Virus record (IMG/VR): IMGVR_UViG_3300030106_006724
Coordinates: 1 to 64,000 of that record
DNA from: a virus
Length of the DNA stretch: 64,000 nucleotides
Reading direction: 5' to 3' (one strand)
This document shows positions 16,551 to 35,213 of this stretch, piece after piece. Numbering within the stretch: position 1 is the first letter of the stretch; each line of letters starts with the position of its first letter. A program made the translations under genes and the position numbers. The notes beneath the pieces are model-generated. The model was given only the letters and a program-made list of their open reading frames with translations. It was not told the DNA's origin and ran no database searches.

Positions 16551-17402
16551 ATGGCAAAAAATGCTGTTTTATCATTAAGTGGAGGAATGGATTCTTCTAC
16601 GTTATTGTTACATTTACTAAGAGAAGGTTATAATGTAACTGCACTCTCTTTTGATTATGGTCAAAAGCATAGAGTTGAATTAGAAAGAGCTCAAGCTCTA
16701 GTTGATTACGTTAATAGTAACTGTAATCAAGTTGTAGGTACTGAACCTGATACAGGTGCAACTATTGCAAAATTAAAATATATGCCTGTTAATTATCAAG
16801 TGATTAAGATTGATGGAATTACTAATTTACTAAATTCTGCTTTAGTAGAAGGTGGAGATGATGTTCCGGAAGGTCATTATGAGCAAGATAATATGAAAGA
16901 AACTGTAGTTCCTAATAGGAATAAGATATTTTCTTCTTTAACGCAAGCTGTAGCTCTGTCTATTGCTAATAAAACTGGAGAAGATACCTATATATCATTA
17001 GGAATACATGCTGGAGATCATGCAGTTTACCCTGATTGTAGACAAGAATTTAGAGATGCTGATATGGAAGCGTTTCAAATAGGTAACTGGGATGCTGATA
17101 GAGTTAAATTCTATACTCCTTATCTAGAAATAGATAAATACGGAATACTTCAGGATGGACAAGAAAGTTGTTTAAGTTTAAATATTGATTTTAATGAGGT
17201 CTATAGTAGAACTAATACTTCTTATAAGCCTTACCCTTCTGGTAATAGCGATTATAAGTCTGCTAGTAGTGTGGAGCGTATCGAAGCTTTTATTAAACTG
17301 GGTATCGCAGATCCTGTTCAATACGAAGACGAGACTGGACCAGTGGATTACGAAGTAGCTAAAAATCATGTTGAAAAGGTTCTTGCTGAATATGCAGGAT
17401 AA
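16551..17402 (+). CDS. queC: 7-cyano-7-deazaguanine (preQ0) synthase
   Basis: SGGMDS, FDYGQKH, VPNRN, YPDCR; C-terminal Cys4 Zn site absent. Confidence 0.9.
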   Translation: MAKNAVLSLSGGMDSSTLLLHLLREGYNVTALSFDYGQKHRVELERAQALVDYVNSNCNQVVGTEPDTGATIAKLKYMPVNYQVIKIDGITNLLNSALVEGGDDVPEGHYEQDNMKETVVPNRNKIFSSLTQAVALSIANKTGEDTYISLGIHAGDHAVYPDCRQEFRDADMEAFQIGNWDADRVKFYTPYLEIDKYGILQDGQESCLSLNIDFNEVYSRTNTSYKPYPSGNSDYKSASSVERIEAFIKLGIADPVQYEDETGPVDYEVAKNHVEKVLAEYAG

Positions 17403-20533: not shown

Positions 20534-20688
20534 TTAAAATAGATGTAAAAAAAGGTGATACTATTTTAGTAGGTCGCTTTAAAAATAAAAGAACTAAAGT
20601 AAAAACTATAGAGTATGATGAATTCGGTATGCCTATAATAAACGGTAGACCTGCTTGTACTTTTAGACTAGTAAAAAACCCAAGATAA
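20530..20688 (+). CDS. Small hypothetical protein (52 aa), not in ORF track
   Basis: MIKIDVKKGDTILVGRFKNKRTKV...GMPIINGR; fills the gap and overlaps both neighbours (ATGA/TAATG). Confidence 0.7.
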   Translation: MIKIDVKKGDTILVGRFKNKRTKVKTIEYDEFGMPIINGRPACTFRLVKNPR

Positions 20689-22346
20689 TGTTACAATTAG
20701 GAATATCAGCCTTTTACCATGATTCTGCAGCTTGTATAGTTAAACATGGCGAAGTATTAGCAGCAGCTGAAGAAGAAAGATTTACTGAAATAAAACACGA
20801 TTCTTCTTTCCCTATTAATGCAATAGCATATGTATTATCAGAAGTAGGTATAGAAGATATAAACGATATAGATGAAGTATGTTGGTATGAAAAACCTAAA
20901 GTTAAAAAAAATAGGGTACTTAGAACGTTTAACAAGCATTTTTTCAAAACTTTTAAAAATAGACTTATTTTTCTTTATAACTATTATTTTAATTCTCCTA
21001 AAAATTTACTTAAACGTCATTTCCAATATAAAGGTATAATTAAATATACTGATCATCATTTATCTCATGCCGGTTTTAGTTATTATACCAGTCCTTTTAA
21101 AAATGCTGCTATTTTAACTGTAGACGGTGTTGGAGAATGGGAAACTATTACTATTTCTAAAGGTGAAGGTGCTGATATTACTAAAATGTATAGTATAGAC
21201 TTTCCTAATTCTTTAGGTATGCTGTATTCAACTGTAACAGCATTTCTAGGATTTAAACCTAACGAAGGAGAATACAAAGTTATGGGTTTAGCTCCTTTTG
21301 GAGATCCTTTAAAATATATTAATAAGCTATCTAAAATATTCGATAGAAAAGGTAATATTGATCAAAAATACTTTACATGGGAATATTCTGAAAAAATAAT
21401 GTTCAATATAGAATTTTGTAAACTTTTAGGATTACCTCCTAGATTTAAAGAAGAACCTATAACTCAAGATCATAAAGATTTAGCAGCAGCATTACAAAAA
21501 GTATACGAAAGAGAATTTGAAAAATTAGTACATAAAGCAAAAAAGTTAACTGGATCCCCTAATATTTGCTTAGGAGGCGGCTGCGCTTATAACGGAGTAG
21601 CTAATGTACTTGCCTATAATCATTTTAGATCAGTATATATTCCTTTTGCTCCTTCTGATGCTGGGTCTGCTATAGGAGCTTGTCTAATAAATAATCCTAT
21701 CTCAGGGTATGCAACTGATAATGGTTGTCCTTATTTAGGTAATGGTTATACTAATGAAGAAATTGAAAATATATTAGATAATTACAAAGATAAAGTTAAA
21801 GTACAATTATTTAATGAGAGTACTCTATTAGAAAAAACAGCTGAAATAATTAACGATCAGAAGATAGTTGCTTGGTTTCAAGGAAGAATGGAATTCGGTG
21901 CAAGAGCATTAGGAAATAGATCAATATTAGCTTCTCCTAGGGATGCAAGTATGAGAGATAAACTAAATAGAGTAATTAAAAAGAGAGAAGGATTTAGACC
22001 TTTTGCTCCTTCAGTTACAGTTAATCAAGCTTCTAAATGGTTTAATTTAAAACAAAGCGTACCGTATATGAATATAGTTTTACAAGCTAAGACTAATAAG
22101 TTTAAAGCAGCAACTCATATAGATGGATCATGTAGAGTACAGACAGTTGATAAATATCGAAATCCATTATATTTTAAACTAATAAAAGAAATAGGTAAAA
22201 AATCAGGTGCTGAAGTAGTTTTAAATACTTCATATAATCTAAAGGACCAGACTATTACTAGAACACCTCAACAAGCTATAGAAAGATTTTTAGATTCAGA
22301 TATAGATAATTTAGTTATAAATAAATTTTTAATTAGTAAAAAATGA
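20688..22346 (+). CDS. Second carbamoyltransferase (NodU/CmcH family)
   Basis: YHDSAA, EEERF, HHLSHA, DGVGE, GEYKVMGLA, EFGARALGNRS. Confidence 0.92.
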   Translation: MLQLGISAFYHDSAACIVKHGEVLAAAEEERFTEIKHDSSFPINAIAYVLSEVGIEDINDIDEVCWYEKPKVKKNRVLRTFNKHFFKTFKNRLIFLYNYYFNSPKNLLKRHFQYKGIIKYTDHHLSHAGFSYYTSPFKNAAILTVDGVGEWETITISKGEGADITKMYSIDFPNSLGMLYSTVTAFLGFKPNEGEYKVMGLAPFGDPLKYINKLSKIFDRKGNIDQKYFTWEYSEKIMFNIEFCKLLGLPPRFKEEPITQDHKDLAAALQKVYEREFEKLVHKAKKLTGSPNICLGGGCAYNGVANVLAYNHFRSVYIPFAPSDAGSAIGACLINNPISGYATDNGCPYLGNGYTNEEIENILDNYKDKVKVQLFNESTLLEKTAEIINDQKIVAWFQGRMEFGARALGNRSILASPRDASMRDKLNRVIKKREGFRPFAPSVTVNQASKWFNLKQSVPYMNIVLQAKTNKFKAATHIDGSCRVQTVDKYRNPLYFKLIKEIGKKSGAEVVLNTSYNLKDQTITRTPQQAIERFLDSDIDNLVINKFLISKK

Positions 22347-23107
22347 GATTAACAGGTACTGAAAATGTAAGAATAGTAGGAATACCTAAAAATGCAAGTC
22401 AATCTATTAAGAGAATAGGTTTAGATAACCCTAATATTTTTAACTGGGACTACGATATACCGAATGCTAATAGAGAAAAACATATACATTTTACTGAAAA
22501 AGAATTCTACAAAGAAGATTTAACAGTAATATTTCCTTTTAGAAACGAATGGGAAAGAGTAAAAAGCAATTTCCTTCAATTTTTTAGAGATCATTTAGAG
22601 TTAATAGGAGCATTTGATTCTCGAGATGAAGAAAAAAGTTATAAACGAGTTTTACATTTTATAAAAACCAGTCTTAAACGTCCTGAGCTTAATATAACTA
22701 ATAACCCTCGTAATCTAGTTATTAATACTGAATTAGATAATAGATTAAGTTATTTTAATGAAACAGTATTCAATTTTTTTATAGATAATATTTTTAATAA
22801 CAGTAACTGGAAAGGTATGAAGATGTACTTTGTTGATTTAGAAGCTTTACGTAAACAGCAATTTATAGATTGGCTTATAAAGTTAGATAGTAGATTTGAG
22901 GGTTGTACTGTTCCTGAAGCTAATTTAGCTTCTTCTAATTGGCATAAAACTTTAATAGTTAAAGCATTTAATGAAGTTCGAGATGAAAAACTATATTTAG
23001 ATTATACTAAATTATCTGACTGGAATACTAACGTTAAAGTTAATGTTGATAATAGTAGCAAGATTTGGAGATTGATAAAAAATACTAATTATTATAAAAG
23101 TATATAA
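22343..23107 (+). CDS. Sulfotransferase family 2-like protein
   Basis: IPKNASQSI 5'-PSB-like loop; RNEWERVKS 3'-PB-like motif. Confidence 0.55.
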   Translation: MRLTGTENVRIVGIPKNASQSIKRIGLDNPNIFNWDYDIPNANREKHIHFTEKEFYKEDLTVIFPFRNEWERVKSNFLQFFRDHLELIGAFDSRDEEKSYKRVLHFIKTSLKRPELNITNNPRNLVINTELDNRLSYFNETVFNFFIDNIFNNSNWKGMKMYFVDLEALRKQQFIDWLIKLDSRFEGCTVPEANLASSNWHKTLIVKAFNEVRDEKLYLDYTKLSDWNTNVKVNVDNSSKIWRLIKNTNYYKSI

Positions 23108-23223
23108 TGAAAGAAGATAAAACTAAAGAGCAAATAGAGAAAGAAAAGAAGCTAGAAGAAGAATTTCAAAAAAAATTGAAAGAGCTTAAAAAAAGAGATC
23201 CATTTATTTATAAAAATTTTTAG
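23107..23223 (+). CDS. Tiny charged protein (38 aa), not in ORF track
   Basis: MKEDKTKE...LKKRDPFIYKNF; TAATG coupling. Confidence 0.55.
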   Translation: MKEDKTKEQIEKEKKLEEEFQKKLKELKKRDPFIYKNF

Positions 23224-23227
23224 TAAT

Positions 23228-23260
23228 AGTTGGATAATAGAATATTTATACTTATATTAT
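23228..23260 (+). promoter_or_regulatory. Promoter motif class A heading the queD/queE operon
   Basis: TTGGAT 23230-23235, 17 nt, TATATT 23253-23258. Confidence 0.8.
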
Positions 23261-23269
23261 AGTATAATT

Positions 23270-23299
23270 AGTGTCGTAGCACCACTTTAAAAACACAAG
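23270..23299 (+). ncRNA. preQ1-I riboswitch-like aptamer
   Basis: AGTG-TCG-TAG-CA-C-CACT-TTAAAAACA-CAAG between promoter and ATG; matches class I preQ1 pseudoknot layout. Confidence 0.6.
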
Positions 23300-23300
23300 A

Positions 23301-23561
23301 ATGAAAAAAGACGTATTAAAGGTTATAGAAAAAGAACTCTACGATAGAGATCTAAGATACAATTCACACAAAGAAGTTAACCTCGAAAACTTACCGAATA
23401 CCACCGAATATCCGGATGCTAAATTACACCAGATAATATCATTTATAAAATCTGGTATTAGGATAGCAGCTTGTATTGCTGGTATTATGGGCTACATATG
23501 GATTGGTTTCTTAGGACTTGCTATTGCAGAGGTAGTTGGTATAATAGAAGAATTAGTTTAG
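23301..23561 (+). CDS. Small membrane protein
   Basis: C-terminal hydrophobic hairpin (SFIKSGIRI...AEVVGIIEELV). Confidence 0.65.
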   Translation: MKKDVLKVIEKELYDRDLRYNSHKEVNLENLPNTTEYPDAKLHQIISFIKSGIRIAACIAGIMGYIWIGFLGLAIAEVVGIIEELV

Positions 23562-23563
23562 TT

Positions 23564-24040
23564 ATGAATAAGAATAAATTTTTATCTACAAAAGTATTTG
23601 ATGGATTTAGTACAGTATTTCGTCAATGGAAAGCAGAAACTACTCACTGTAAATTTTTACACGGATATGGAGTATCTTTTAAGATTTGGTTCGAAGGGGA
23701 ATTAGATGAAAGAAACTGGGTATGGGATTTCGGTGGAATGAAAAGAGCCAAAGGAACTATTGATGGTAGATCTCCTAAAGAGTGGTTTGATTATATGTTT
23801 GATCATACATTTATAGTAGCAGAAGATGATCCATATTTAGAATCTTTTAATAAGATGGACGATGCTGAAGTTGCACAGGTTAGAGTAGTAGAAGCAACTG
23901 GAGCTGAAAAATTTGCTGAATTAGTTTATTATAAAGTTAATGAATTCATTACTTTAGAAACTGAAGGCAGAGTAAAAATAGCGAGAGTAGAATTTAGAGA
24001 GCACGGTAAAAATAGTGCTATATTTGAACCTAGTATATAA
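23564..24040 (+). CDS. queD: 6-carboxy-tetrahydropterin synthase (divergent)
   Basis: HCKFLHGY, DFGG, FDH, AE, E-x4-SA; start moved to ATG 23564. Confidence 0.85.
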   Translation: MNKNKFLSTKVFDGFSTVFRQWKAETTHCKFLHGYGVSFKIWFEGELDERNWVWDFGGMKRAKGTIDGRSPKEWFDYMFDHTFIVAEDDPYLESFNKMDDAEVAQVRVVEATGAEKFAELVYYKVNEFITLETEGRVKIARVEFREHGKNSAIFEPSI

Positions 24041-24042
24041 TA

Positions 24043-24819
24043 ATGTTAGGACGAGTTAAGAACTACGATAAAACCCTACCTATAGTTGAAGTGTATACTG
24101 CAGTTCAATCAGAAGGAAGTAGAGCTGGGTATCCTACAGTAGTTATTAGAACTACAGGATGTACTCATAGATGTTATTTTGGAGAAGGAGGATGGTGTGA
24201 TTCTTGGTATACTAGTATTCATGCTGAAAAAGGTAAATATACTTTTAATGATATTATTAAGATGTATGATGATAATCCTCAAATATCAGAAATGATGCTA
24301 ACAGGAGGTTCTCCTACTATGCATAAAAAACTAGTTAATGAATTAACACATTTTGCACATGAAAGAGATATTTTTATTACTATTGAGACTGAAGGTAGCC
24401 ATTTTCTTCCTACTGATTACCCTATTAACTTGCTTTCTATTAGTCCCAAGCTTAGTAATAGCGTCCCCGTACTTGGTGTACTTACTCCTCAAGGGGCAGT
24501 AACAGATCAAAAAATGATTGATAGACATAATAAATTTAGATTAAATTATGATGCTATCTCTAAACAAATTGAATATCATTCAGATTATCATATAAAACCT
24601 GTATGGGACGGTAAAGATCAAGATGCATTAAATGAAATAATGGACTTCATTGAAAAATTAAATATACCAAGGGATAAAGTATGGTTTATGCCTGCAGGTG
24701 ATAGTAGAGAATCTCTTTTTAAGTCATACCCAGTACTTTTTGATTGGGTTAGAGATAACGGTTATAGAATGACATGGAGACCTCATATTATAGCATTTGA
24801 AGATAAAAGAGAAGTTTAA
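24043..24819 (+). CDS. queE: 7-carboxy-7-deazaguanine synthase (radical SAM)
   Basis: QSEG, RTTGC, CX3CX7C, LTGG, ETEG, SPK. Confidence 0.88.
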   Translation: MLGRVKNYDKTLPIVEVYTAVQSEGSRAGYPTVVIRTTGCTHRCYFGEGGWCDSWYTSIHAEKGKYTFNDIIKMYDDNPQISEMMLTGGSPTMHKKLVNELTHFAHERDIFITIETEGSHFLPTDYPINLLSISPKLSNSVPVLGVLTPQGAVTDQKMIDRHNKFRLNYDAISKQIEYHSDYHIKPVWDGKDQDALNEIMDFIEKLNIPRDKVWFMPAGDSRESLFKSYPVLFDWVRDNGYRMTWRPHIIAFEDKREV

Positions 24820-25217
24820 TGGATAAAACTTTTATTACATGGAATCAGGTAAATAAATTACTCGACAAAATCCATGACCAAACTCAAGGAGGATTTGATT
24901 ATGTTTCTGGAATACCTAGAGGGGGATTAATTTTGGCAGTATTGTATTCGCATAGATTTGGAGTTGAATTTATGGAATACCCTAGTAATCATTATCATAA
25001 TTTATTAATTTTAGATGATATAGCTGATAGTGGTAAAACATTAAAAAAATGGACTGAAAAATTAAATATTCCTTACTTTGCTACTCTTCATTATAAGAGA
25101 AGTTCATGCGTAGAACCAGATTTTTACGGCAGAAAAATGATAAAAGAAGATAGATGGATAGTATATCCTTGGGAAAATAAAGACTCAAAAACTATACAAA
25201 ATTATTTGGAAAATTAA
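24819..25217 (+). CDS. Type I phosphoribosyltransferase (Gpt-like)
   Basis: GIPRGG, ILDDIADSGKT, WIVYPWE. Confidence 0.85.
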   Translation: MDKTFITWNQVNKLLDKIHDQTQGGFDYVSGIPRGGLILAVLYSHRFGVEFMEYPSNHYHNLLILDDIADSGKTLKKWTEKLNIPYFATLHYKRSSCVEPDFYGRKMIKEDRWIVYPWENKDSKTIQNYLEN

Positions 25218-25240: not shown

Positions 25241-26260
25241 ATGAAAGACGATAAAGCAAAAGGTTACGAATGGATAGGAGATGCAGACGAAACTGTAGAA
25301 GCTCCAGCTAATGAACATTCAGTGAAATACTACGAACCTGATAGAGATTATGATTCTAAATATAATCCTACTAAAGATGATATTAAAACGTTTCCTGATC
25401 TTCAAAATGGTCCTTCTTCTTTGATTCAAGGGTCTCCTGTCGCTATACAGCAGGTAGGTATTCATAATTTTAGATTACCTTTAAAGTATAGCAAGAGAGG
25501 AGGTGGTGATATAGAATTAGAAACTAAAGTTACTGGTACGGTTTCTTTAGCGGCTCATAAAAAAGGTATTAATATGTCTCGTATCATGAGATCATTTTAT
25601 GAATATAAAGATGATTATGTATATGACAAGTTAGATGAAATATTATTAAAGTATAAAGAAAATTTAGAGACCTTTGATGCTAAAATAGGATTACATTTTT
25701 CTTACCCTATATTACAACCTTCATTAAGATCAGATAATGCAGGTTATCAATATTATAACTGTACTTTAGAAGGTAATATAGATGATAAAGGTAATTTTAG
25801 AAAGTTTTTACATTTCGATTTCGTTTATTCATCTGCTTGTCCTTGTTCTTATGAATTAGCAGAGCATGCTAGAAAATATAGAAATAAAGCAACAGTATCT
25901 CATTCTCAAAGATCTGTAGCAAGAATATCTATTGAATTTGACGATATAGTATGGATTGAAGATTTACAAGAGATGTGTGCTAATGCTCTACAGACTGAAA
26001 CTCAAGTAGTTGTTAAAAGAGAAGATGAGATGGCATTTGCTGAATTAAATGGTTCTTATCTTAAGTTTGTAGAAGATGCTGCTAGATTACTATATGAGCA
26101 GTTAATAGAGGATAAAAGAGTAAAAGATTTTAGAGTTATTTGTTCTCATCAAGAGTCATTACATTCTCATGATGCTGTTTCAGTAATTACAGCTCCTGAT
26201 AGTGAATTTTGTCAAGATGTTCCTCATGAGTTATGGTCAAGTTTAATTCATATATCATAA
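25241..26260 (+). CDS. folE2: GTP cyclohydrolase IB
   Basis: PDLQ, KGINMSR, SACPCS, HSQRS, KREDE, FVED, ESLHSH. Confidence 0.92.
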   Translation: MKDDKAKGYEWIGDADETVEAPANEHSVKYYEPDRDYDSKYNPTKDDIKTFPDLQNGPSSLIQGSPVAIQQVGIHNFRLPLKYSKRGGGDIELETKVTGTVSLAAHKKGINMSRIMRSFYEYKDDYVYDKLDEILLKYKENLETFDAKIGLHFSYPILQPSLRSDNAGYQYYNCTLEGNIDDKGNFRKFLHFDFVYSSACPCSYELAEHARKYRNKATVSHSQRSVARISIEFDDIVWIEDLQEMCANALQTETQVVVKREDEMAFAELNGSYLKFVEDAARLLYEQLIEDKRVKDFRVICSHQESLHSHDAVSVITAPDSEFCQDVPHELWSSLIHIS

Positions 26261-26796
26261 TGTCTAAAATTGAAGAATTAAAAAAATTATGTGGTGAGTT
26301 AAGAACTTTAACTGAACAGACTTTTGATGAGGTTAAGAGTGATAAATATTCTAAATATGAAGATGCTTTAAGATCTTTTATTGATAAGTATGAAATAGAT
26401 CATAGACCATGGGGTAAGTACGAAGTAATGTACAGTAGTCCTTTTGTAAAAGTAAAGAAGATAATAGTTAAACCTCGAGGTATATTATCTTATCAGTATC
26501 ATGATCAAAGAACTGAGGATTGGATAATTACTAGAGGAAGCGCTAAAATAGTACTTGATGATGAAGAGGTATGGAGAACTGAAGGAGAAAGAATTAGAAT
26601 AAAAGTAGGACAGAAGCATAGAGTTAGTAATCCTAGTTTTGATAATATATTAGAATTTATAGAAGTGCAAACAGGAACTTACTTTGGAGAAGATGATATA
26701 ATCAGAATAGAAGATGATTATGGTAGATTAGAAGACGAGCATTTAAGAGATCATGATATAAAAGGAGGAATAATTAATAGTTATGAAAAAAAATAA
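26260..26796 (+). CDS. Cupin, mannose-6-phosphate isomerase type II C-terminal-like
   Basis: RPWGKY, LSYQYH, HR, EVQTG.YFGEDDI; start moved to ATG 26260. Confidence 0.85.
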   Translation: MSKIEELKKLCGELRTLTEQTFDEVKSDKYSKYEDALRSFIDKYEIDHRPWGKYEVMYSSPFVKVKKIIVKPRGILSYQYHDQRTEDWIITRGSAKIVLDDEEVWRTEGERIRIKVGQKHRVSNPSFDNILEFIEVQTGTYFGEDDIIRIEDDYGRLEDEHLRDHDIKGGIINSYEKK

Positions 26797-26962
26797 AAGT
26801 TTAGCAGAATATATAGTTGAAATAGATGGTAAGCAATATGTACCTTACAGTAAAGCTGTAGAGGCGATAATGCAATCCGTAAGTAGAGAAGTAAGAGAAG
26901 CTATGGATGAAGTAGCTTCCGGAATGAAGGATGTAAATAGTTTATTAGAAGATAATGATTAA
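26783..26962 (+). CDS. Small hypothetical protein (59 aa), not in ORF track
   Basis: MKKNKSLAEYIVEIDGKQYVPY...; fills gap. Confidence 0.6.
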   Translation: MKKNKSLAEYIVEIDGKQYVPYSKAVEAIMQSVSREVREAMDEVASGMKDVNSLLEDND

Positions 26963-27770
26963 AATAGCGCACGAATCTCCTAAGAGTATTTTTGATGATG
27001 TACAGAAAGTAACTGACTACGATTACGCTCTAGTTCATTTATTAGAAGAAGACGAACAGTATCTTAAGCATTTTCAACAAGCTATTAAAAAAGGAAGAGA
27101 AGTAATTTTAGATAATTCAATATTTGAATTAGAAGAAGCTTTTGAAGCTGAAAAATTTGCATACTGGGTTGAAAAATTAAGACCTGAATGGTATATAGTA
27201 CCTGATGCTTTAGAAAACTCTCTTCTTACCATGGCTCAGATGGAAAAATGGAACTCTCAGTATAAAAACCTTCCCGGTAAAAAAATTGGAGTAGTACAAG
27301 GTCAAACTTATCAATCTATTATAGACTGTTATAAGTATATGGATTATGTAGCTGATGTTGATATGATAGCTATATCATTTGATTACTCTTATTATACCGA
27401 ATCAGTACCTCATGCTAATAAGTACGTTAGTTGGATGTTAGGTAGAATAAAATTATTAGGAGACTTACTTAAGCATGGTATAATAAATAAAAATAAACCT
27501 CATCACCTTTTAGGATGTGGATTACCTCAAGAATTTAGCTTTTATAAACATTCAGATTACGATTGGTTATACTCTTTAGATACTTCTAATCCAGTAGTTC
27601 ACGGTATCAAAGGTATTAAATATGGTGATGATGGTTTGTGGAGCAAAGAATCTCAAAAACTTTATGAATTAATTAATTATGAAGTTGAAGATACTAATAT
27701 AATAATGAATAATATACAAAAATTTAGATGGTTAACTAATGGGAGACACAAAGTGGATATCGTTCTTTAG
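26955..27770 (+). CDS. dpdA: TGT-fold guanine transglycosylase, DpdA (DpdA3-like)
   Basis: VILDNS, VPD, GVVQG, HLLG, SLDTS motifs; located within que cluster. Confidence 0.75.
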   Translation: MIKIAHESPKSIFDDVQKVTDYDYALVHLLEEDEQYLKHFQQAIKKGREVILDNSIFELEEAFEAEKFAYWVEKLRPEWYIVPDALENSLLTMAQMEKWNSQYKNLPGKKIGVVQGQTYQSIIDCYKYMDYVADVDMIAISFDYSYYTESVPHANKYVSWMLGRIKLLGDLLKHGIINKNKPHHLLGCGLPQEFSFYKHSDYDWLYSLDTSNPVVHGIKGIKYGDDGLWSKESQKLYELINYEVEDTNIIMNNIQKFRWLTNGRHKVDIVL

Positions 27771-28302
27771 TCAAACAGGATCTGAAATAGCTGATATATC
27801 TGAAGCATTAGGACAAGCTCCTGATGTTATTATTACTAATGATAGACCCGATCATCTTAGAACTATAGATGAAAGAATAGAAAAGCAAGGTTATTTTACC
27901 TGGGCTAATAAACCTTCAGAAGAAGATTATATTAGTTTATTAGAAGCTTATCCTGATGCAATAGTTACTTTACATGGTTGGTTAAGAATAGTACCTCCGT
28001 ATGTCTGTGAACGTTCTAAAATTTATAACGGTCATCCCGGTCTGATAACTAAATATCCAGAACTAAAAGGTAAAGATCCTCAAGAGAAAGCTTTTAAATT
28101 ACAACACGAAGTTATGGGGTGTGTACTTCATGAGGTTTCTCCTGGAGTAGATGAAGGGAAAATACTAATGGAAGAAAGATTTAACTCTCATGGGTTGGAT
28201 CTTAACGGAGTTTTTCGTACCTTAAGAGATAGAAGTTTATACATGTGGATTAAATTTTTAAGAATAGCTTTAATTCATCAAAATTATTATAATGATAACT
28301 AG
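27739..28302 (+). CDS. dpdN: PurN-like formyltransferase (DpdN-like preQ1 formyltransferase)
   Basis: FSQTGS, LHGWLRI, NGHPG, H-E-V..GVDEG; overlaps dpdA. Confidence 0.75.
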   Translation: MGDTKWISFFSQTGSEIADISEALGQAPDVIITNDRPDHLRTIDERIEKQGYFTWANKPSEEDYISLLEAYPDAIVTLHGWLRIVPPYVCERSKIYNGHPGLITKYPELKGKDPQEKAFKLQHEVMGCVLHEVSPGVDEGKILMEERFNSHGLDLNGVFRTLRDRSLYMWIKFLRIALIHQNYYNDN

Positions 28303-28813
28303 AATAGCTTTAGTAGGAGCAAGTAGTACAGGAAAAACTACTGTATTTGAATTACTTAAAAATAAATTACCTAAGTATGAATTCGTTAATGAATCGACTC
28401 GTACTATAGGTAACTATGGTTTTCCTATAAATGAACAAGGTACTGATGCTACTCAATTAGCTATTAGTAGCTTTCATTTAGAAGCTTTACTTCAACCTAA
28501 TAATTTAGTATTAGATAGATGCTATATGGATGTAGTAGTTTATTCTAAATTTATGGAAAATTTAAGAGCTAGAACTTATAATTATATTGAAGATACTTGG
28601 AATAGAATAAAAAAAGAGTATACTCATTATATTTATTTTCCTATTGAATTTGATTCAGTTGATGATGGAGTAAGGAGTATAGATGAGACTTGGAGAAAAG
28701 ATATAGATGATGAATTCCAAGCTGTATTAGAAGGAGTACGAAAACCTTATTTAACTGTTACTGGATCCCCGATGCAGAGAATTGAACAAATATTAAAATT
28801 TATAAATGAGTAA
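28292..28813 (+). CDS. P-loop nucleotide kinase-like ATPase (NadR/AAA_28 type)
   Basis: GASSTGKTT, LDR, DDGVR. Confidence 0.75.
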   Translation: MITRIALVGASSTGKTTVFELLKNKLPKYEFVNESTRTIGNYGFPINEQGTDATQLAISSFHLEALLQPNNLVLDRCYMDVVVYSKFMENLRARTYNYIEDTWNRIKKEYTHYIYFPIEFDSVDDGVRSIDETWRKDIDDEFQAVLEGVRKPYLTVTGSPMQRIEQILKFINE

Positions 28814-29318
28814 ACAATTAGAACTAGACTTTGGCGGTCCTGAAAAATATGTACCTTTCGTTTCAGAGGTAGAAGAATTTAATGCCACGTTTGGCAAACC
28901 TAATAATTATGAACCAACTATTCCAGAGAAAAAAGAATGGCAATTCGTCTATGACTTTATTCTCGAAGAACTTGAAGAATATAGAGAAGCTTGCGAAAGA
29001 GGAGACATCGTCGAAGTTTTGGATGCTCTTTGCGATATTGCTTACGTTTCCATTGGGAACGGTACTATGTTACATGGCCTTAAGGATAAGATATGGCCTG
29101 CTTATCAAGAAGTACAAGCGTCTAATATGTCAAAAGCTTGTACTACTGAAGAAGAAGCAAAAGAAACTGTCGCCCTCAGAACTAAAGAACAGGGTGAAGA
29201 GTGTTATTATGAAAAAGTAGGTGACTATTATATAGTATACCGAAAAAGAGATAAAAAGGTTATGAAATCTATAAATTATTTCAGACCAGATTTAAGTAAA
29301 TTTTTAAAAAATGTATAA
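28806..29318 (+). CDS. MazG-like/PRA-PH NTP pyrophosphohydrolase
   Basis: EELEEY, DALCD, VQASNMSK, KVMKS..YFRPD. Confidence 0.85.
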   Translation: MSKQLELDFGGPEKYVPFVSEVEEFNATFGKPNNYEPTIPEKKEWQFVYDFILEELEEYREACERGDIVEVLDALCDIAYVSIGNGTMLHGLKDKIWPAYQEVQASNMSKACTTEEEAKETVALRTKEQGEECYYEKVGDYYIVYRKRDKKVMKSINYFRPDLSKFLKNV

Positions 29319-29676
29319 ATACGGAGCAAAATTAGTTAGAGTAGTCGATGGAGATACAGCTGATGTAATGATCGACTTAGGTTTTGATACTTGGGTTAAG
29401 GCTAGACTTAGATTTAAAGGAGTTGATACCTGGGAAAAAAGAACTAGAAATAAAGAAGAAAAAATAAAAGGTTTAGCTGCTACAGCTTTTACTGCAACTT
29501 ATTTAGAAAAGAATAAAGGTAATTTTACTATTCAATCATACGGTAAAGGTAAGTACGGTAGAGTTTTAGCAGAGATCTTTATAGATGGAGAAGAAAAATC
29601 TCTTAATCAGTTATTAATAGAAAATGGTCATGCGTATATTTACGAAGGCGGTAAAAAACAAGTATTTAATGGATAA
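29311..29676 (+). CDS. Thermonuclease (SNase) family nuclease
   Basis: VVDGDT, GVDT.E, KYGRVLA, LIENGHA. Confidence 0.88.
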   Translation: MYKYGAKLVRVVDGDTADVMIDLGFDTWVKARLRFKGVDTWEKRTRNKEEKIKGLAATAFTATYLEKNKGNFTIQSYGKGKYGRVLAEIFIDGEEKSLNQLLIENGHAYIYEGGKKQVFNG

Positions 29677-30568
29677 TCAAAGTAAAGTAAAAGAAATAGC
29701 AGGTAAACATTTAGGTAAAGTAGGTGGAGCCGGCTATAGCGATCAGTATAATAGAGACTTATTAGTAAAAGTTCCTAGAAAGTTAAATAGAGAAACTTAT
29801 AATCTTTCTGGAAATGAATTTGTAGGAGTTGATACATGGAATGCATATGAAGTATCTGCTATTACTACTAAGGGTCAACCTGTAGCGGGTATGTTAAAAA
29901 TAGTATGCCCTTCTAACTCTGAATTTCACGTAGAATCTAAGTCTATAAAGTTATATTTAAATTCTCTTAATATGACTAAGATAGGAGATACAGCTAAAGA
30001 CTGTATTAAAGGTATAGAAGCTACAGTTAAAAGAGATTTAGATGAATTATTAGAAACTAATACGACTGTATCTTTTTATGCTGATGATTCAGAAACTACT
30101 CCTCTATCCTTTAAAGATTATGAAGATGTAGCCGAAATTGCTAATTTAGATGAAATAGATTTTACCTCTTTTAAATCTGATGCTTCTCAGTTAGAAGCTC
30201 AAGATAATGATGAAGTAGAAGAATTAAGGTATAGATCTAACTTATTAAGATCGAACTGTAGAGTAACTAATCAACCTGATTGGGGTGATGTATTTATCTA
30301 TCTTAGAGGTAAAAAATTACCTACTGCAGCTTCATTAGCAAAGTATATAGTAAGCCATAGAACTGTAAGTCATTTCCATGAAGAGATATGTGAAATGGTA
30401 TTTGCTCATTTATGTGAAGCATTTCAACCAGACCAATTAATGGTTGCATGTTTATATACTAGAAGAGGAGGTTTAGATATTAATCCTATTAGAGCTACTC
30501 ATTCTAGTTTAATACCAGAATTTTTTACTAATCCTGATTTTACTATTCAAAAAACTTTAAGGCAGTAA
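29669..30568 (+). CDS. queF: NADPH-dependent preQ0 reductase, bimodular
   Basis: WNAYEVS, VESKSIKLYLNS, CRVTNQPD, FHEE, YTRRGG; start moved to ATG 29669. Confidence 0.92.
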   Translation: MDNQSKVKEIAGKHLGKVGGAGYSDQYNRDLLVKVPRKLNRETYNLSGNEFVGVDTWNAYEVSAITTKGQPVAGMLKIVCPSNSEFHVESKSIKLYLNSLNMTKIGDTAKDCIKGIEATVKRDLDELLETNTTVSFYADDSETTPLSFKDYEDVAEIANLDEIDFTSFKSDASQLEAQDNDEVEELRYRSNLLRSNCRVTNQPDWGDVFIYLRGKKLPTAASLAKYIVSHRTVSHFHEEICEMVFAHLCEAFQPDQLMVACLYTRRGGLDINPIRATHSSLIPEFFTNPDFTIQKTLRQ

Positions 30569-31924: not shown

Positions 31925-34252
31925 ATGCAATTAGAGAAAAAATACTATACCGTTCAAGATAATGAAACTCTTGAACTCTTATATAAACATATTGAATCGT
32001 CTGATATACTAGCTGTCGATACTGAAACTTCTGGTCTTAATCCTCGTAAAGATAAAATAGTTGGTTGGTCAGTATCTGGCGACGAAGGTGTAGGGTTTTA
32101 CCTACCTACCTTAGTTTGGAACTTTGATAAAGATGAATTAGAACTTCAAACTATTAACGGTAAATCTACTGAAACTATATCTAAAAACTTTATGAGAATG
32201 CTAAAAGGTAAAAAATTAGTATTTCATAATGCTTCGTTTGACTGTCAGTTTATTAAAAATTATTTTGGAGTAGATCTTATTGAAGATATATGGGTTGATA
32301 CTGGTCTATTAGTTCATACTGTATATGAAGAAGGTGCGTTTGGTTATGGTAATCCTTTTGGTTTGAAACCTATTGCTATAATGAATCAGAAAGAATTAGG
32401 TTTAGATGTAGAAAAAGCTGCTAACGAAGAGCAATTAGAACTTAAAGGCTCTATAAAGAAAAATGGCGGTCAGACTACTAAGTTACTATTTGAGATTTAT
32501 AAAGCTGATTTAGATATTCTATCTAAGTATGCTTCTGCCGATACCGATTTAACTTTACGTATATGTAACTTATATCTAAAGAAATTAAAAGAAGAAGGGC
32601 TAGAGAAGTTTTTCTTTGAAGAAGAAGTTATGCCGATATATAGAGAAGTAACTGTTCCTATGGAATCTGCAGGTGTTGATTTAGATGTAGAACTAATAGA
32701 AAAGACTCATAAAGAGATTAGCGAAGACTTAATTAAAAATAAAGAGATAGTAATGAAATCTTTATTAGCTATTTCTGAAGTTAAAGAATGGGTATTAGGT
32801 ACTGCATTAAGTAACTACCCTGTATCTCATAAAGGTAACTGGGCTCAGAATTTGGTTACTCGTTATTCTTTACCTTTACCTAAGTCTGAAAAAACTGGTA
32901 AGTATTCTCTTACTAGTAAAAATATAGAAGAGTTAGAGGAATCTAATGTTAAGCAGTTTTTACTTACTGGTGATACTGATCTTATAGAAGATGTAGAAAA
33001 AGCTCGTATATCGATGGCTATGTGGAAAGAATCTAATGATGGAGAGTATATTAATATTCAATCTAAGAAGCATTTAGGTGAAATAGTATTTAAGTATATG
33101 GGTATTAAACCTAAAGTAGCTGGTGCTAATACTAAATCTGGTAGAGCTAAGTTTGATATGGATATGGTAGAAGAACTAGCGAAAGAATATCCTTGGGCTG
33201 AAAACTTAAGAATATATAATAAACTACTTAAGATTAAATCTACTTATGTAGATAGGTTTAGAGATAGAAATGAAGATGGTAAATATTATTTTTACTTTAA
33301 GCAGAATGGTACTGTATCTGGTCGATATGGATCTGATGCTCAACAGTTACCTAAACCTTTAGAAGAAGGTGAAGATGCTCCTATTATTATGAAGTATGTT
33401 AATATAGTAAGGGCTTTCTTAGTAGCCGGTAAAGGTAGAAAAGTTATTGATGCTGATTACGAATCATTAGAACCTCATTGCTTTGCCTCAGTATCTGGTG
33501 ATAAAAAACTTCAAGAAATATTCGATAATGGTTGGGACTTTTATTCTTATGTCGCTATTCAAACTGAAAAGCTTGATGGAGTATCTGCTGATAAAAAAGC
33601 TGATAACTACCTTAAAAAATTAGATCCTGTTAAAAGAAATAAAGCTAAAGCTTATTCTTTAGGAGTTGCATATGGAATGGAAGCTTATGCTCTTAAAATG
33701 ACTTTAGGAGTAGATCAAAAGACTGCTGAAGGATTAATAAAGGGTTACTTAGATGGTTTTCCTGGTTTAAGAGATTGGAGAGAAAACTCTCGTAGGCAAG
33801 TAAAAGATCATGGTTTTATTAAAAATTATGTTGGTCGTATAAGGCACGTACCTAAGGTAAAAAAGATTTATGAAAAGTTTGGTGAAAAGATGATGGATTG
33901 GAGGTTTAGAAAAGACTTAGAGAATCAAGGATATAATAGAGATGATATAGTTAAGGTTTATAGAGATTACCGTAATGGATTAAACTTCTGCCTTAACTTT
34001 CAATTACAATCTTTAGCTGCAGCGGTAGTAAATAGAGCTGCTGTAGTTATTAATAGGACTGCTAGAGAAAAAGGCTTCGATGCTTTCGTTCAAGCACAAG
34101 TACATGACCAGTTAATTATAAACGTGAAAGACGATCAAGCTGAAGCCTTTGCTCCTTTAGTTCAAGAGATTATGGAAAATACTACTAAGTTACCTGGAGT
34201 AACTTTAAAAGCTCCTCCTGAAATAGCTAATAACTGGAGAGACGGACATTAA
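31925..34252 (+). CDS. polA: Family A DNA polymerase with 3'-5' exonuclease
   Basis: DTETSGL, HNASFD, YASAD; DADYESLE, KAKAYSLGVAYG, QVHDQ. Confidence 0.93.
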   Translation: MQLEKKYYTVQDNETLELLYKHIESSDILAVDTETSGLNPRKDKIVGWSVSGDEGVGFYLPTLVWNFDKDELELQTINGKSTETISKNFMRMLKGKKLVFHNASFDCQFIKNYFGVDLIEDIWVDTGLLVHTVYEEGAFGYGNPFGLKPIAIMNQKELGLDVEKAANEEQLELKGSIKKNGGQTTKLLFEIYKADLDILSKYASADTDLTLRICNLYLKKLKEEGLEKFFFEEEVMPIYREVTVPMESAGVDLDVELIEKTHKEISEDLIKNKEIVMKSLLAISEVKEWVLGTALSNYPVSHKGNWAQNLVTRYSLPLPKSEKTGKYSLTSKNIEELEESNVKQFLLTGDTDLIEDVEKARISMAMWKESNDGEYINIQSKKHLGEIVFKYMGIKPKVAGANTKSGRAKFDMDMVEELAKEYPWAENLRIYNKLLKIKSTYVDRFRDRNEDGKYYFYFKQNGTVSGRYGSDAQQLPKPLEEGEDAPIIMKYVNIVRAFLVAGKGRKVIDADYESLEPHCFASVSGDKKLQEIFDNGWDFYSYVAIQTEKLDGVSADKKADNYLKKLDPVKRNKAKAYSLGVAYGMEAYALKMTLGVDQKTAEGLIKGYLDGFPGLRDWRENSRRQVKDHGFIKNYVGRIRHVPKVKKIYEKFGEKMMDWRFRKDLENQGYNRDDIVKVYRDYRNGLNFCLNFQLQSLAAAVVNRAAVVINRTAREKGFDAFVQAQVHDQLIINVKDDQAEAFAPLVQEIMENTTKLPGVTLKAPPEIANNWRDGH

Positions 34253-34262
34253 AATTAATTAT

Positions 34263-35213
34263 ATGATTAGAACAGCAGAATGTATAACACCTAAGCATCC
34301 AGATAAAATCTGTGATAGAATATCAGATGCTATTTTAGATGCATGTTTAAAGCAGGATCCTAATACAAGAGCTGCTATAGAAACTATGGGAGGTCACGGA
34401 ATTATAACCGTAACCGGCGAACTAACTACAACAGCCTTTGTTGATATTCCGGAAGTAGTAAAATCAGTATACGGTAAAGATATAGGAGTACAAACCAATA
34501 TAGTAATGCAATCACCAGAAATAGCTCAAGGAGTAGATACTGGCGGAGCAGGTGATCAAGGTATTATGATAGGATATGCTTGTACTGAAAATGATGAAAT
34601 GGTACCTCTAGAGTATTATTTTGCAAGAAAGTTATGTGAATCTATCTATATAAATCATCCTTATGATGGAAAAACTCAAGTTACTATATTAGAAGATGAT
34701 TCATTAAATGTAGTAGCATCGTTTCAAAATACTTCTACTGAAGACTTAATACATCATATAAAAGATTTCTTTGCAGAAACAAATTATACCATCAATTCTC
34801 TACATTGCAACCCAGCTGGAGAATGGAATTTAGGAGGCTTTGATGCTGATACAGGATTAACAGGAAGAAAATTAGCTGTAGATAACTATGGTCCTAGAAT
34901 ACCTTTAGGTGGAGGAGCTTTTAGCGGTAAGGATAGTTCTAAAGTAGATAGATCAGCAGCATATATGGCTAGAAGAATAGCTACAGACTATATAGGAAAA
35001 TATAAAGCTAGTGAAGTTTATGTAACTCTAGCTTATGCTATAGGACATGATAAACCTTTACAAGCTACAGCTTTAGTAGATGGAAAAGAAATTTATATAA
35101 ACGACTATGATTTATCTCCAAAAGGAATAGTAGAGTTTTTAGGTTTAAAACAACCTATTTTCTACGAAACTTCTAAATGGGGGCATATGGGAAAAAACTT
35201 TTCATGGAATTAG
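34263..35213 (+). CDS. metK: S-adenosylmethionine synthetase
   Basis: HPDKICD, GAGDQG, GLTGRK, GGGAFSGKD.SKVDRS. Confidence 0.95.
   Translation: MIRTAECITPKHPDKICDRISDAILDACLKQDPNTRAAIETMGGHGIITVTGELTTTAFVDIPEVVKSVYGKDIGVQTNIVMQSPEIAQGVDTGGAGDQGIMIGYACTENDEMVPLEYYFARKLCESIYINHPYDGKTQVTILEDDSLNVVASFQNTSTEDLIHHIKDFFAETNYTINSLHCNPAGEWNLGGFDADTGLTGRKLAVDNYGPRIPLGGGAFSGKDSSKVDRSAAYMARRIATDYIGKYKASEVYVTLAYAIGHDKPLQATALVDGKEIYINDYDLSPKGIVEFLGLKQPIFYETSKWGHMGKNFSWN

Follow-up and report, generated by a model that had tools for sequence, protein, structure and literature searches.

Does a phage that encodes its own route to a 7-deazaguanine base also carry an RNA that senses this product? The question is raised by the leader in front of a queD/queE operon in a 64,000-nucleotide stretch of viral DNA, which comprises positions 1 to 64,000 of the IMG/VR record IMGVR_UViG_3300030106_006724 and is hereafter called the window. 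The window is part of an 89.2-kb virus record that is about 54% complete. The phage is marine and, among named phages, stands closest to Flavobacterium phage vB_FspM_immuto and the Cellulophaga phages phiST, phi19:2, and phi13:1. A first-pass annotation, made from the letters of the DNA, had proposed that a preQ1-I riboswitch-like aptamer resides in this leader. Our analysis suggests that the phage RNA at 23270-23297 on the plus strand is probably a miniature preQ1-I-like aptamer in the style of type II, and that this candidate probably forms a short H-type pseudoknot. We estimate a probability of about two in three (0.68) that it serves as a translational OFF switch, which would sense preQ1 or preQ0 in a host that does not use Shine-Dalgarno sequences.

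The 28 bases of the element read AGUG-UCGUAGCAC-CACU-UUAAAAA-CACA. The 5′ strand of stem P1 (AGUG, 23270-23273) faces its 3′ strand (CACU, 23283-23286) across a loop at 23274-23282 (UCGUAGCAC, or TCGTAGCAC as DNA), which comprises L1 (UCG), a proposed 5′ strand of P2 (UAG), L2 (CA), and C23282, the proposed ligand-pairing base. Then follow the A-rich L3 (UUAAAAA, 23287-23293) and a proposed, weakly supported 3′ strand of P2 (CACA, 23294-23297), with the pairs C23294-G23279 and A23297-U23277. At the DNA level, the plus strand runs from 23270 as AGTG TCGTAGCAC CACT TTAAAAA CACAAG A ATG, in which the tail at 23287-23299 (TTAAAAACACAAG) is separated by a single A at 23300 from the ATG at 23301. 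Upstream of the element lies a promoter-like site at 23230-23258 (+), with TTGG at 23230-23233 and TATATT at 23253-23258; a sigma-70-type scan read it as TGGATA-16-TATATT at 23231-23258, with 9 of 12 matches. The TTGG...TATATT arrangement recurs in related loci, 11-19 nt 5′ of P1 of the element, and transcription would start a few bases upstream of 23270. Re-reading of the letters showed that TATATT, the hairpin, the tail, and the ATG had been given correctly in the first-pass annotation.

Viral loci were sampled by way of QueD (80 loci) and of FolE (80 loci). A 30-mer with at most five mismatches was present at the same place in 39 of the 80 QueD-based loci, the next best locus having at least 10 mismatches, and the QueD proteins of these element-bearing relatives are 62-87% identical to that of the window. 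Aligning the leader across relatives, a check that the first-pass annotation had suggested, revealed clear conservation: the mean pairwise identity of the 27-nt core is 96% in 29 distinct related contexts, compared with 31-49% for the ungapped 27-nt segments flanking it. Among 67 distinct elements, U23274, A23278, G23279, A23281, and C23282 are invariant, as is the G-C pair closing P1 (67/67), and C23275 is at least 90% conserved. Three A columns of L3 are invariant, a fourth is nearly so, and its other A columns are at least 90% conserved, while the length of L3 across the phage element family is 5-9 nt. Of the features that had been singled out from one sequence, the U and the C of the UCG at the start of the loop and the C before the 3′ strand of P1 are invariant or nearly invariant in the 67 elements. 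The terminal CAAG, also described as conserved, is not: relatives read CAAA, CACG, CGAA, CTAA, CCGG, and other variants there, and conservation ends at ACAC (23293-23296).

A loose descriptor revealed, in the QueD-based loci, a paralogous second copy of the element in front of folE, which has its own stem and the same loop and tail. This folE-type copy reads TGAG-TCGTAGAAC-CTCA followed by an A-rich tail (the stem being GGAG/CTCC in phage immuto), is preceded by its own promoter-like site, and has 16-20 nt between the end of P1 and the folE ATG. The element occurs in 57 of the 80 FolE-based loci, which add the stems TGTG/CACA, GGTG/CACC, and TAAG/CTTA and the loops TCGGAG, TTGAAG, and TCGAAG. 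Throughout IMG/VR, at least 119 stretches match a pattern with a fixed loop and tail and an open choice at the first three positions of the 5′ strand. In the window, a search with a covariance model built from the phage element (R1) found no second copy. Two further loci carry a weak R1 match (19-20 bits) just after queD (L021, 3466-3492; L031, 3477-3503), consisting of an AGTG/CACT stem, a different 10-nt loop (ACTGTAAAAC), and an A-rich tail, which may be a decayed or divergent third form.

P1 is fully Watson-Crick in 132 of 135 pattern matches, in which the first three bases of the 5′ strand were unconstrained. Among the 67 distinct elements, the stem is paired in 99.3% of 268 cells, a level reached by 0 of 500 shuffles, and slid controls are 28-63% paired; compensatory changes were found at three of the four pairs (AU/UA/GC, GC/AU, and UA/AU). 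Since the collection of the 67 elements demanded three of the four P1 pairs, it favours pairing; the 132/135 result is free of that bias. The covariation check proposed at the outset thus came out in favour of the stem, and the P1 helix of preQ1-I is represented here by a covarying helix with an invariant closing G-C pair, of 4 bp rather than 5. No G-U pair occurs in P1 among the elements, and an altered pattern aimed at such pairs gave 12 stretches, none with P1 or a que context. The purely Watson-Crick pairing, together with the position of the site 11-19 bp from the promoter-like TATATT, would suit a different explanation, in which AGTG-N9-CACT is an inverted repeat serving as DNA operator for a transcription factor, and the covariation reflects matched half-sites. 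We consider this very improbable. A palindromic operator would be best conserved in its half-sites, whereas here the asymmetric 9-bp spacer and the A-rich tail on one side exceed them in conservation; the orientation is constant, and the short fixed distance is that to the ATG, not that to the promoter.

The conserved positions were then compared with the preQ1-binding pocket. Type II preQ1-I aptamers have AC before the 3′ strand of P1, and type I aptamers have UC there and UU after the 5′ strand (PMC11625349). The pocket of the Thermoanaerobacter tengcongensis aptamer is framed by the C7+-G11-C30 triple and the G5-C16 floor pair (PMC11625349). In the accessible part of PMC7641330, C15 is named as the base that sets specificity, and U6 and A29 are named as contacts to the edge of the ligand; the methods section in that part prints the T. 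tengcongensis sequence, with which the one given in the first-pass annotation agrees. The invariant or near-invariant columns of the phage elements are the first loop U, the next C, AG, AC, the closing G-C, four to five A, and C-A. Judged by position, these columns would correspond to U6, C7, G11, C15, G5-C16, and the A tail of T. tengcongensis. The A and the C that mark type II before the 3′ strand of P1 are both invariant in the 67 elements, and the ligand-edge contacts U6 and A29 would find counterparts in the first loop U, which is invariant, and in the end A of the A-rich L3.

Translational operators that bind proteins typically take this form as well, with a short covarying stem and an invariant loop close to a start codon. 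A phage or host translational repressor, or an RNA chaperone, might therefore bind an RNA operator in the leaders of the queD operon and folE, with no small-molecule sensing. The weak evidence for P2 and the failure of preQ1-I profile models to score the site speak for such an operator. We nevertheless regard it as unlikely. Base for base, the invariant positions agree with the type II pocket and its A-minor tail, and conservation of the A-rich tail and of the C behind it equals that of the hairpin. Moreover, the element goes together with QueF and with the very pathway leading to the preQ1-I ligand, and the cluster yielded no candidate for an RNA-binding protein.

The genomic distribution of the element is highly specific. 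R1 found one site in the window with 53.8 bits, the next scoring 17.1 bits; of 50 phage contigs (43-191 kb), 34 contain one or two R1 sites and the other 16 contain none, and the sites in the 34 contigs stand solely before 7-deazaguanine genes. In 104 of 107 distinct contexts, a same-strand string of small open reading frame (ORF)-QueD-QueE, FolE, or FolE2 comes next, as in the 5′ leaders of preQ1-I with queuosine/preQ1 genes downstream, and the other three contexts are without a match; the distance from the conserved C to the ATG is 5-14 nt (mode 7). A descriptor was derived from 11 canonical type II aptamers and then widened, in knowledge of the candidate, to admit a P1 of 4 bp and a shorter L2, which makes it partly post hoc. 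It recovered 11/11 type II aptamers, gave one match on both strands of the 89.2-kb genome, at 23270, and gave three matches in total on 1000 dinucleotide shuffles of the genome.

When the phage pattern was searched in 596 Gb of bacterial and archaeal genomes, 12 stretches were obtained, of which 11 match by chance and lack both a full P1 and que genes. The twelfth (L211; NYWG01000135.1, 5922 bases), which is filed as a Verrucomicrobiales metagenome-assembled genome, carries queD-type and folE-type elements together with phage-like genes and is most likely a misbinned phage contig. With one base of the stem altered, a control pattern matched only unrelated sequences in viral contigs. No R1 match at E≤0.01 emerged from 151 Flavobacteriaceae genomes, in a search that scored 45 first-look candidates per genome without a positive control and hence shows little. 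The specificity of the pattern and of R1 indicates that the element belongs to phages and goes with two transcription units of a single pathway. This distribution bears on the idea that the 5′ element is constitutive and senses nothing, acting as a hairpin that stabilises the mRNA or as an A-rich enhancer of translation. The leader is A-rich and weakly structured, like good Bacteroidota initiation regions as described in the accessible part of PMC6847099. Such an element would be expected in more places than the one or two pathway-specific leaders per genome of 60-190 kb and would need no invariant loop sequence, and we give this explanation the slightest chance of all.

QueF was detected above the Pfam cut-off in all 34 element-bearing contigs and in one of the 16 contigs without the element, two more of which have sub-threshold matches. 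The presence of QueF in all 34 fits preQ1 as the ligand. A riboswitch of the same fold might instead respond to preQ0 alone, to another 7-deazapurine made by the phage, such as the carboxy intermediate, or to a guanine-like base. The aptamer is shortened by one or two positions in each of P1, L2, and L3, so that its pocket may differ, and the cluster contains extra enzymes, namely a phosphoribosyltransferase, a formyltransferase, and a carbamoyltransferase. We take such a ligand to be quite unlikely in view of the invariant specificity C and the invariant U and A contacts, and of the constant company of QueF, the maker of preQ1 (34/34). None of the four alternatives explains the invariant positions that match the preQ1 pocket.

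The evidence for P2 comes from the 67 distinct elements. In all of them, C then A directly follow the A run, under a parse of the scan that required this C. The pair between loop position 4 and the fourth tail base forms in 49 of the 67, against an average of 44.5 in shuffles (P=0.03, uncorrected for relatedness), and no other P2 register stands out. CAG loops face G in 5/5 cases, GAG loops face C or U in 2/2, and UAG loops face A or G in 42/57. Being invariant, G23279 and the C behind the A run carry no information for this test; this C would be the natural partner of the invariant loop G, giving a 7-nt L3 for a 4-bp P1. The register first proposed, with a 9-nt L3 and CAAG at 23296-23299 as the 3′ strand, works for the sequence of the window and fails for the family, which is better suited by the 7-nt L3 with C23294-G23279. 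In the family register, the S2 helix would end at 23297, 3 nt before the ATG, and not 1 nt before the start codon as had been supposed.

These features led us to propose the following mechanism for a preQ1-responsive switch. The ligand would be the free 7-deazaguanine base (preQ1, possibly preQ0) produced by the phage FolE2-QueD-QueE-QueC-QueF enzymes. It would pair with C23282 and stack between the G23273-C23283 pair at the top of P1 and the G23279-C23294 ceiling pair, and its binding would draw the A-rich tail into the groove of P1. Bacteroidota ribosomes ignore Shine-Dalgarno sequences. Initiation in F. johnsoniae is tuned by low structure and by upstream A such as A-3 (accessible part of PMC6847099); the window has an A at −3 of the ATG at 23301. 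The folded knot, ending 3 nt before the AUG, would bury the unstructured A-rich upstream bases used by these ribosomes, so that initiation at the first cistron, encoding 86 amino acids (aa), would fall, and later cistrons from queD on would probably fall too by way of a 2-nt gap. In related phages, the paralogous copy would act likewise before folE, and the two units would form a small feedback regulon on the supply of the hypermodification precursor. A scan of the window found no terminator-like site following on the plus strand, which, together with an ORF starting 3 nt after the knot, makes control of initiation the likely output, and the 2-nt gap between the 86-aa ORF and queD suggests translational coupling.

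Several results weigh against a preQ1-I-like switch. The Infernal search with the Rfam PreQ1 model, which the first-pass annotation had suggested, returned nothing at the site: RF00522 stays below its gathering threshold (39 bits), and the site is unlisted even at E≤10 in searches with 251 nt and 41 nt. Across the genome, RF00522 gave three other places with at most 14 bits and not the site at 23270, and no Rfam 15 family matches the element. Our own type II covariance model (R2), built from 11 Bacilli aptamers, aligns 23270-23299 end to end with 6.1 bits (E 9.6), rank 30 of 31 in the window; R2 is narrow, as its 11 training sequences share one P1 sequence. In the reverse direction, R1 ranked two canonical type II aptamers (L244 and L231) first and second with 13.8 and 13.6 bits (E ~0.6), left 9 of the 11 unlisted, and did not see type I (6.8 bits at best). 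Taken together, the results with RF00522, R2, and R1 mean that homology is not demonstrable by sequence profiles, and that the case is one of architecture, pocket positions, and gene context. Moreover, the element is missing in several relatives with the same genes, for example in the queD leader of immuto, in phiST, and in 41 of the 80 QueD-based loci. With a P1 of 4 bp and no G-U pair, covariation cannot separate an RNA helix from a DNA inverted repeat, and P2 covariation is weak, with AAG loops pairing in 0/3 cases. The leader is predicted to be weakly structured (minimum free energy −3 kcal/mol, z +1.29), and RNAfold prefers a competing hairpin, GUGU-CGUA-GCAC (23271-23282), which uses bases of the aptamer loop. 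The QueF link is not an independent statistical test, since the contigs are related, many are incomplete, and they were chosen by element status. Finally, a translational switch would act directly just on the 86-aa ORF, to which no function is assigned. The competing hairpin can form in queD-type elements and not in folE-type ones, and with this restriction it might be the alternative ligand-free state of the queD-type elements.

The operon led by the element contains queD and queE, as stated in the first-pass annotation, with the correction that its first gene is the 86-aa ORF (23301-23561, +) and not queD. This ORF, taken from the ORF list, has a hydrophobic C-terminus (C-terminal half) and no Pfam or PHROG match; its look-alike clusters are viral only, and its homologues are the first ORF 3′ of the element in 53 of the 107 contexts. 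QueD (PTPS; 23564-24040, +; PF01242, E 3e-13) begins 2 nt after the stop of this ORF and is followed by a QueE-like radical SAM enzyme (24043-24819, +; PF04055, E 1.2e-5, under the Pfam cut-off; annotated as QueE in relatives) and, in the same operon, by a phosphoribosyltransferase (24819-25217, +; PF00156; phrog_8995). A FolE2-type GTP cyclohydrolase I (25241-26260, +; PF02649, E 6.5e-70) belongs to the same gene string, and after it come, in order, a cupin, a phrog_19058 protein, a formyltransferase, a kinase-like ATPase, a MazG-like hydrolase, a nuclease, and QueF. QueF, which converts preQ0 to preQ1, is encoded by the phage as had been claimed (29624-30568, +; PF14819 and PF14489), and a QueC match, for the enzyme making preQ0, lies at 16563-17297 (+; PF06508, 129.8 bits). 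With QueC, QueF, and the QueD/QueE genes present, the phage can make preQ1.

Small shares of the sequence were found in six metatranscriptome runs, and contigs from four of them include error-free queD/queE pieces (23516-23769, 23611-23801, 24055-24217, and 23967-24119), for which DNA carry-over is possible and from which start, strand, and level are not readable. The phrog_19058 protein sits where a neighbouring first-pass note places a DpdA-type transglycosylase. Within 26233-29676, genes for a mannose-6-phosphate-isomerase-like cupin, an AAA_28/thymidylate-kinase-like ATPase, a MazG-like pyrophosphohydrolase, and an SNase-like nuclease are interleaved with the que genes; farther on are a family A DNA polymerase (31925-34252) and a SAM synthetase (34263-35213). 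Just 5′ of the operon, 20688-23107 encodes a two-domain carbamoyltransferase (PF02543, PF16861) and a 254-aa protein without a family, both of which may have a role in base-modification chemistry. A sub-threshold match to Rfam CRISPR-DR25 at 23158-23182 (−), with 29.5 bits against a cut-off of 36, corresponds to a TTTCAA-A8-TTGAAA inverted repeat within a 38-aa ORF (23108-23224); there is no repeat array, and the match is probably due to chance in an A-rich coding sequence.

To place the element in its wider setting, the literature was searched. Neither a phage preQ1 riboswitch nor RNA control of phage 7-deazaguanine DNA modification was found, in a coverage mostly outside subscription journals; this is in line with the first-pass annotation, which knew of no described case of riboswitch control of phage DNA hypermodification. 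The word "riboswitch" occurs 0 times in the accessible part of a 2023 paper on 7-deazaguanine DNA modifications (PMC10516641). We hold it somewhat better than an even bet that the element is a phage-only, minimal (~28-nt) descendant of preQ1-I and the first riboswitch regulon over viral DNA hypermodification, in which two paralogous aptamers would shut the translation of folE and queD-queE, and which would be widespread in marine Bacteroidota phages and invisible to Rfam. If so, the phage gauges its own DNA-modification precursor with its own sensor, and the aptamer is among the smallest natural ones. Translation control by riboswitches without Shine-Dalgarno sequences is regarded as an open challenge in a review (PMC11625349), and the element offers a test case for it. 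It also points to a gap in searches, in that family models trained on bacteria miss phage variants such as this one, carried by at least 119 IMG/VR stretches.

Among known systems, the element is closest in plan to the type II preQ1-I aptamers (RF00522), such as those of T. tengcongensis and B. subtilis queC. Both consist of a hairpin and an A-rich tail upstream of queuosine-precursor genes, and the phage loop likewise opens with U-C/U and has (U/C)AG, AC, a G-C pair closing P1, and a C after the A run. Thirty-two canonical aptamers from Bacilli were compared, 11 of them type II, the loops of which read U-U-C-(N)-UAGC-N(1-6)-AC; the phage loop, U-C-G-UAGC-AC, follows the same plan, which can be written U-Y-N-(U)AG(C)-N-AC, and is one base shorter than the shortest of these. 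As in T. tengcongensis, the phage aptamer nearly reaches the start codon, which suits translational control. The proposed P2 resembles the S2 helix of T. tengcongensis, in which G11-C30 and C9-G33 flank two non-canonical pairs (accessible part of PMC7641330), in having two canonical pairs, which is weak evidence. The phage element differs from type II in its P1 (4 bp vs. 5), L2 (2 nt vs. at least 3), and L3 (about 7 nt vs. 8-9), in a P2 3′ strand that reads CAC/CAA instead of CUA and makes at most two canonical pairs, and in having no Shine-Dalgarno sequence to hide. Its exact pattern was found in phage contigs, not in bacterial genomes, and the canonical Bacillus-type pattern was found in no stretch of the viral contigs. 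A preQ1 riboswitch attributed to Streptococcus phage Dp-1 was not confirmed, as cmscan of its que region gave nothing at E≤0.1.

A canonical relative exists in the host family. RF00522 scored above its cut-off in 1 of the 151 Flavobacteriaceae genomes sampled (G040), where a canonical type I preQ1-I aptamer (L330; contig 41, 20088-20132, −; 50 bits) stops some 6 nt short of the ATG of a gene for a YhhQ-like membrane protein (transporter). L330 comes from the same family as the hosts of the cultured relatives of the phage, and it too abuts a start codon without Shine-Dalgarno use, which indicates that this layout exists in the host family; unlike in the phage element, its P1 has 6 bp, its loop of 12 nt ends in UC, and its tail reads CUAAG.

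Riboswitches have rarely been found in phages, the examples being of the c-di-GMP-I and glutamine classes (McCown et al., 2017; PMC5473149, in its accessible part). The c-di-GMP-I riboswitches were reported in C. difficile prophages (same part of PMC5473149), and glutamine riboswitches in cyanophages and pelagiphage-like phages (accessible part of PMC9004378, 2022). Like them, our candidate would be a metabolite-sensing RNA carried by a virus. Those riboswitches are ordinary members of bacterial families, recognised by standard models and without a tie to DNA modification, whereas the preQ1-like element described here appears to be a phage-specific variant placed over the phage's own pathway for a DNA-hypermodification precursor.

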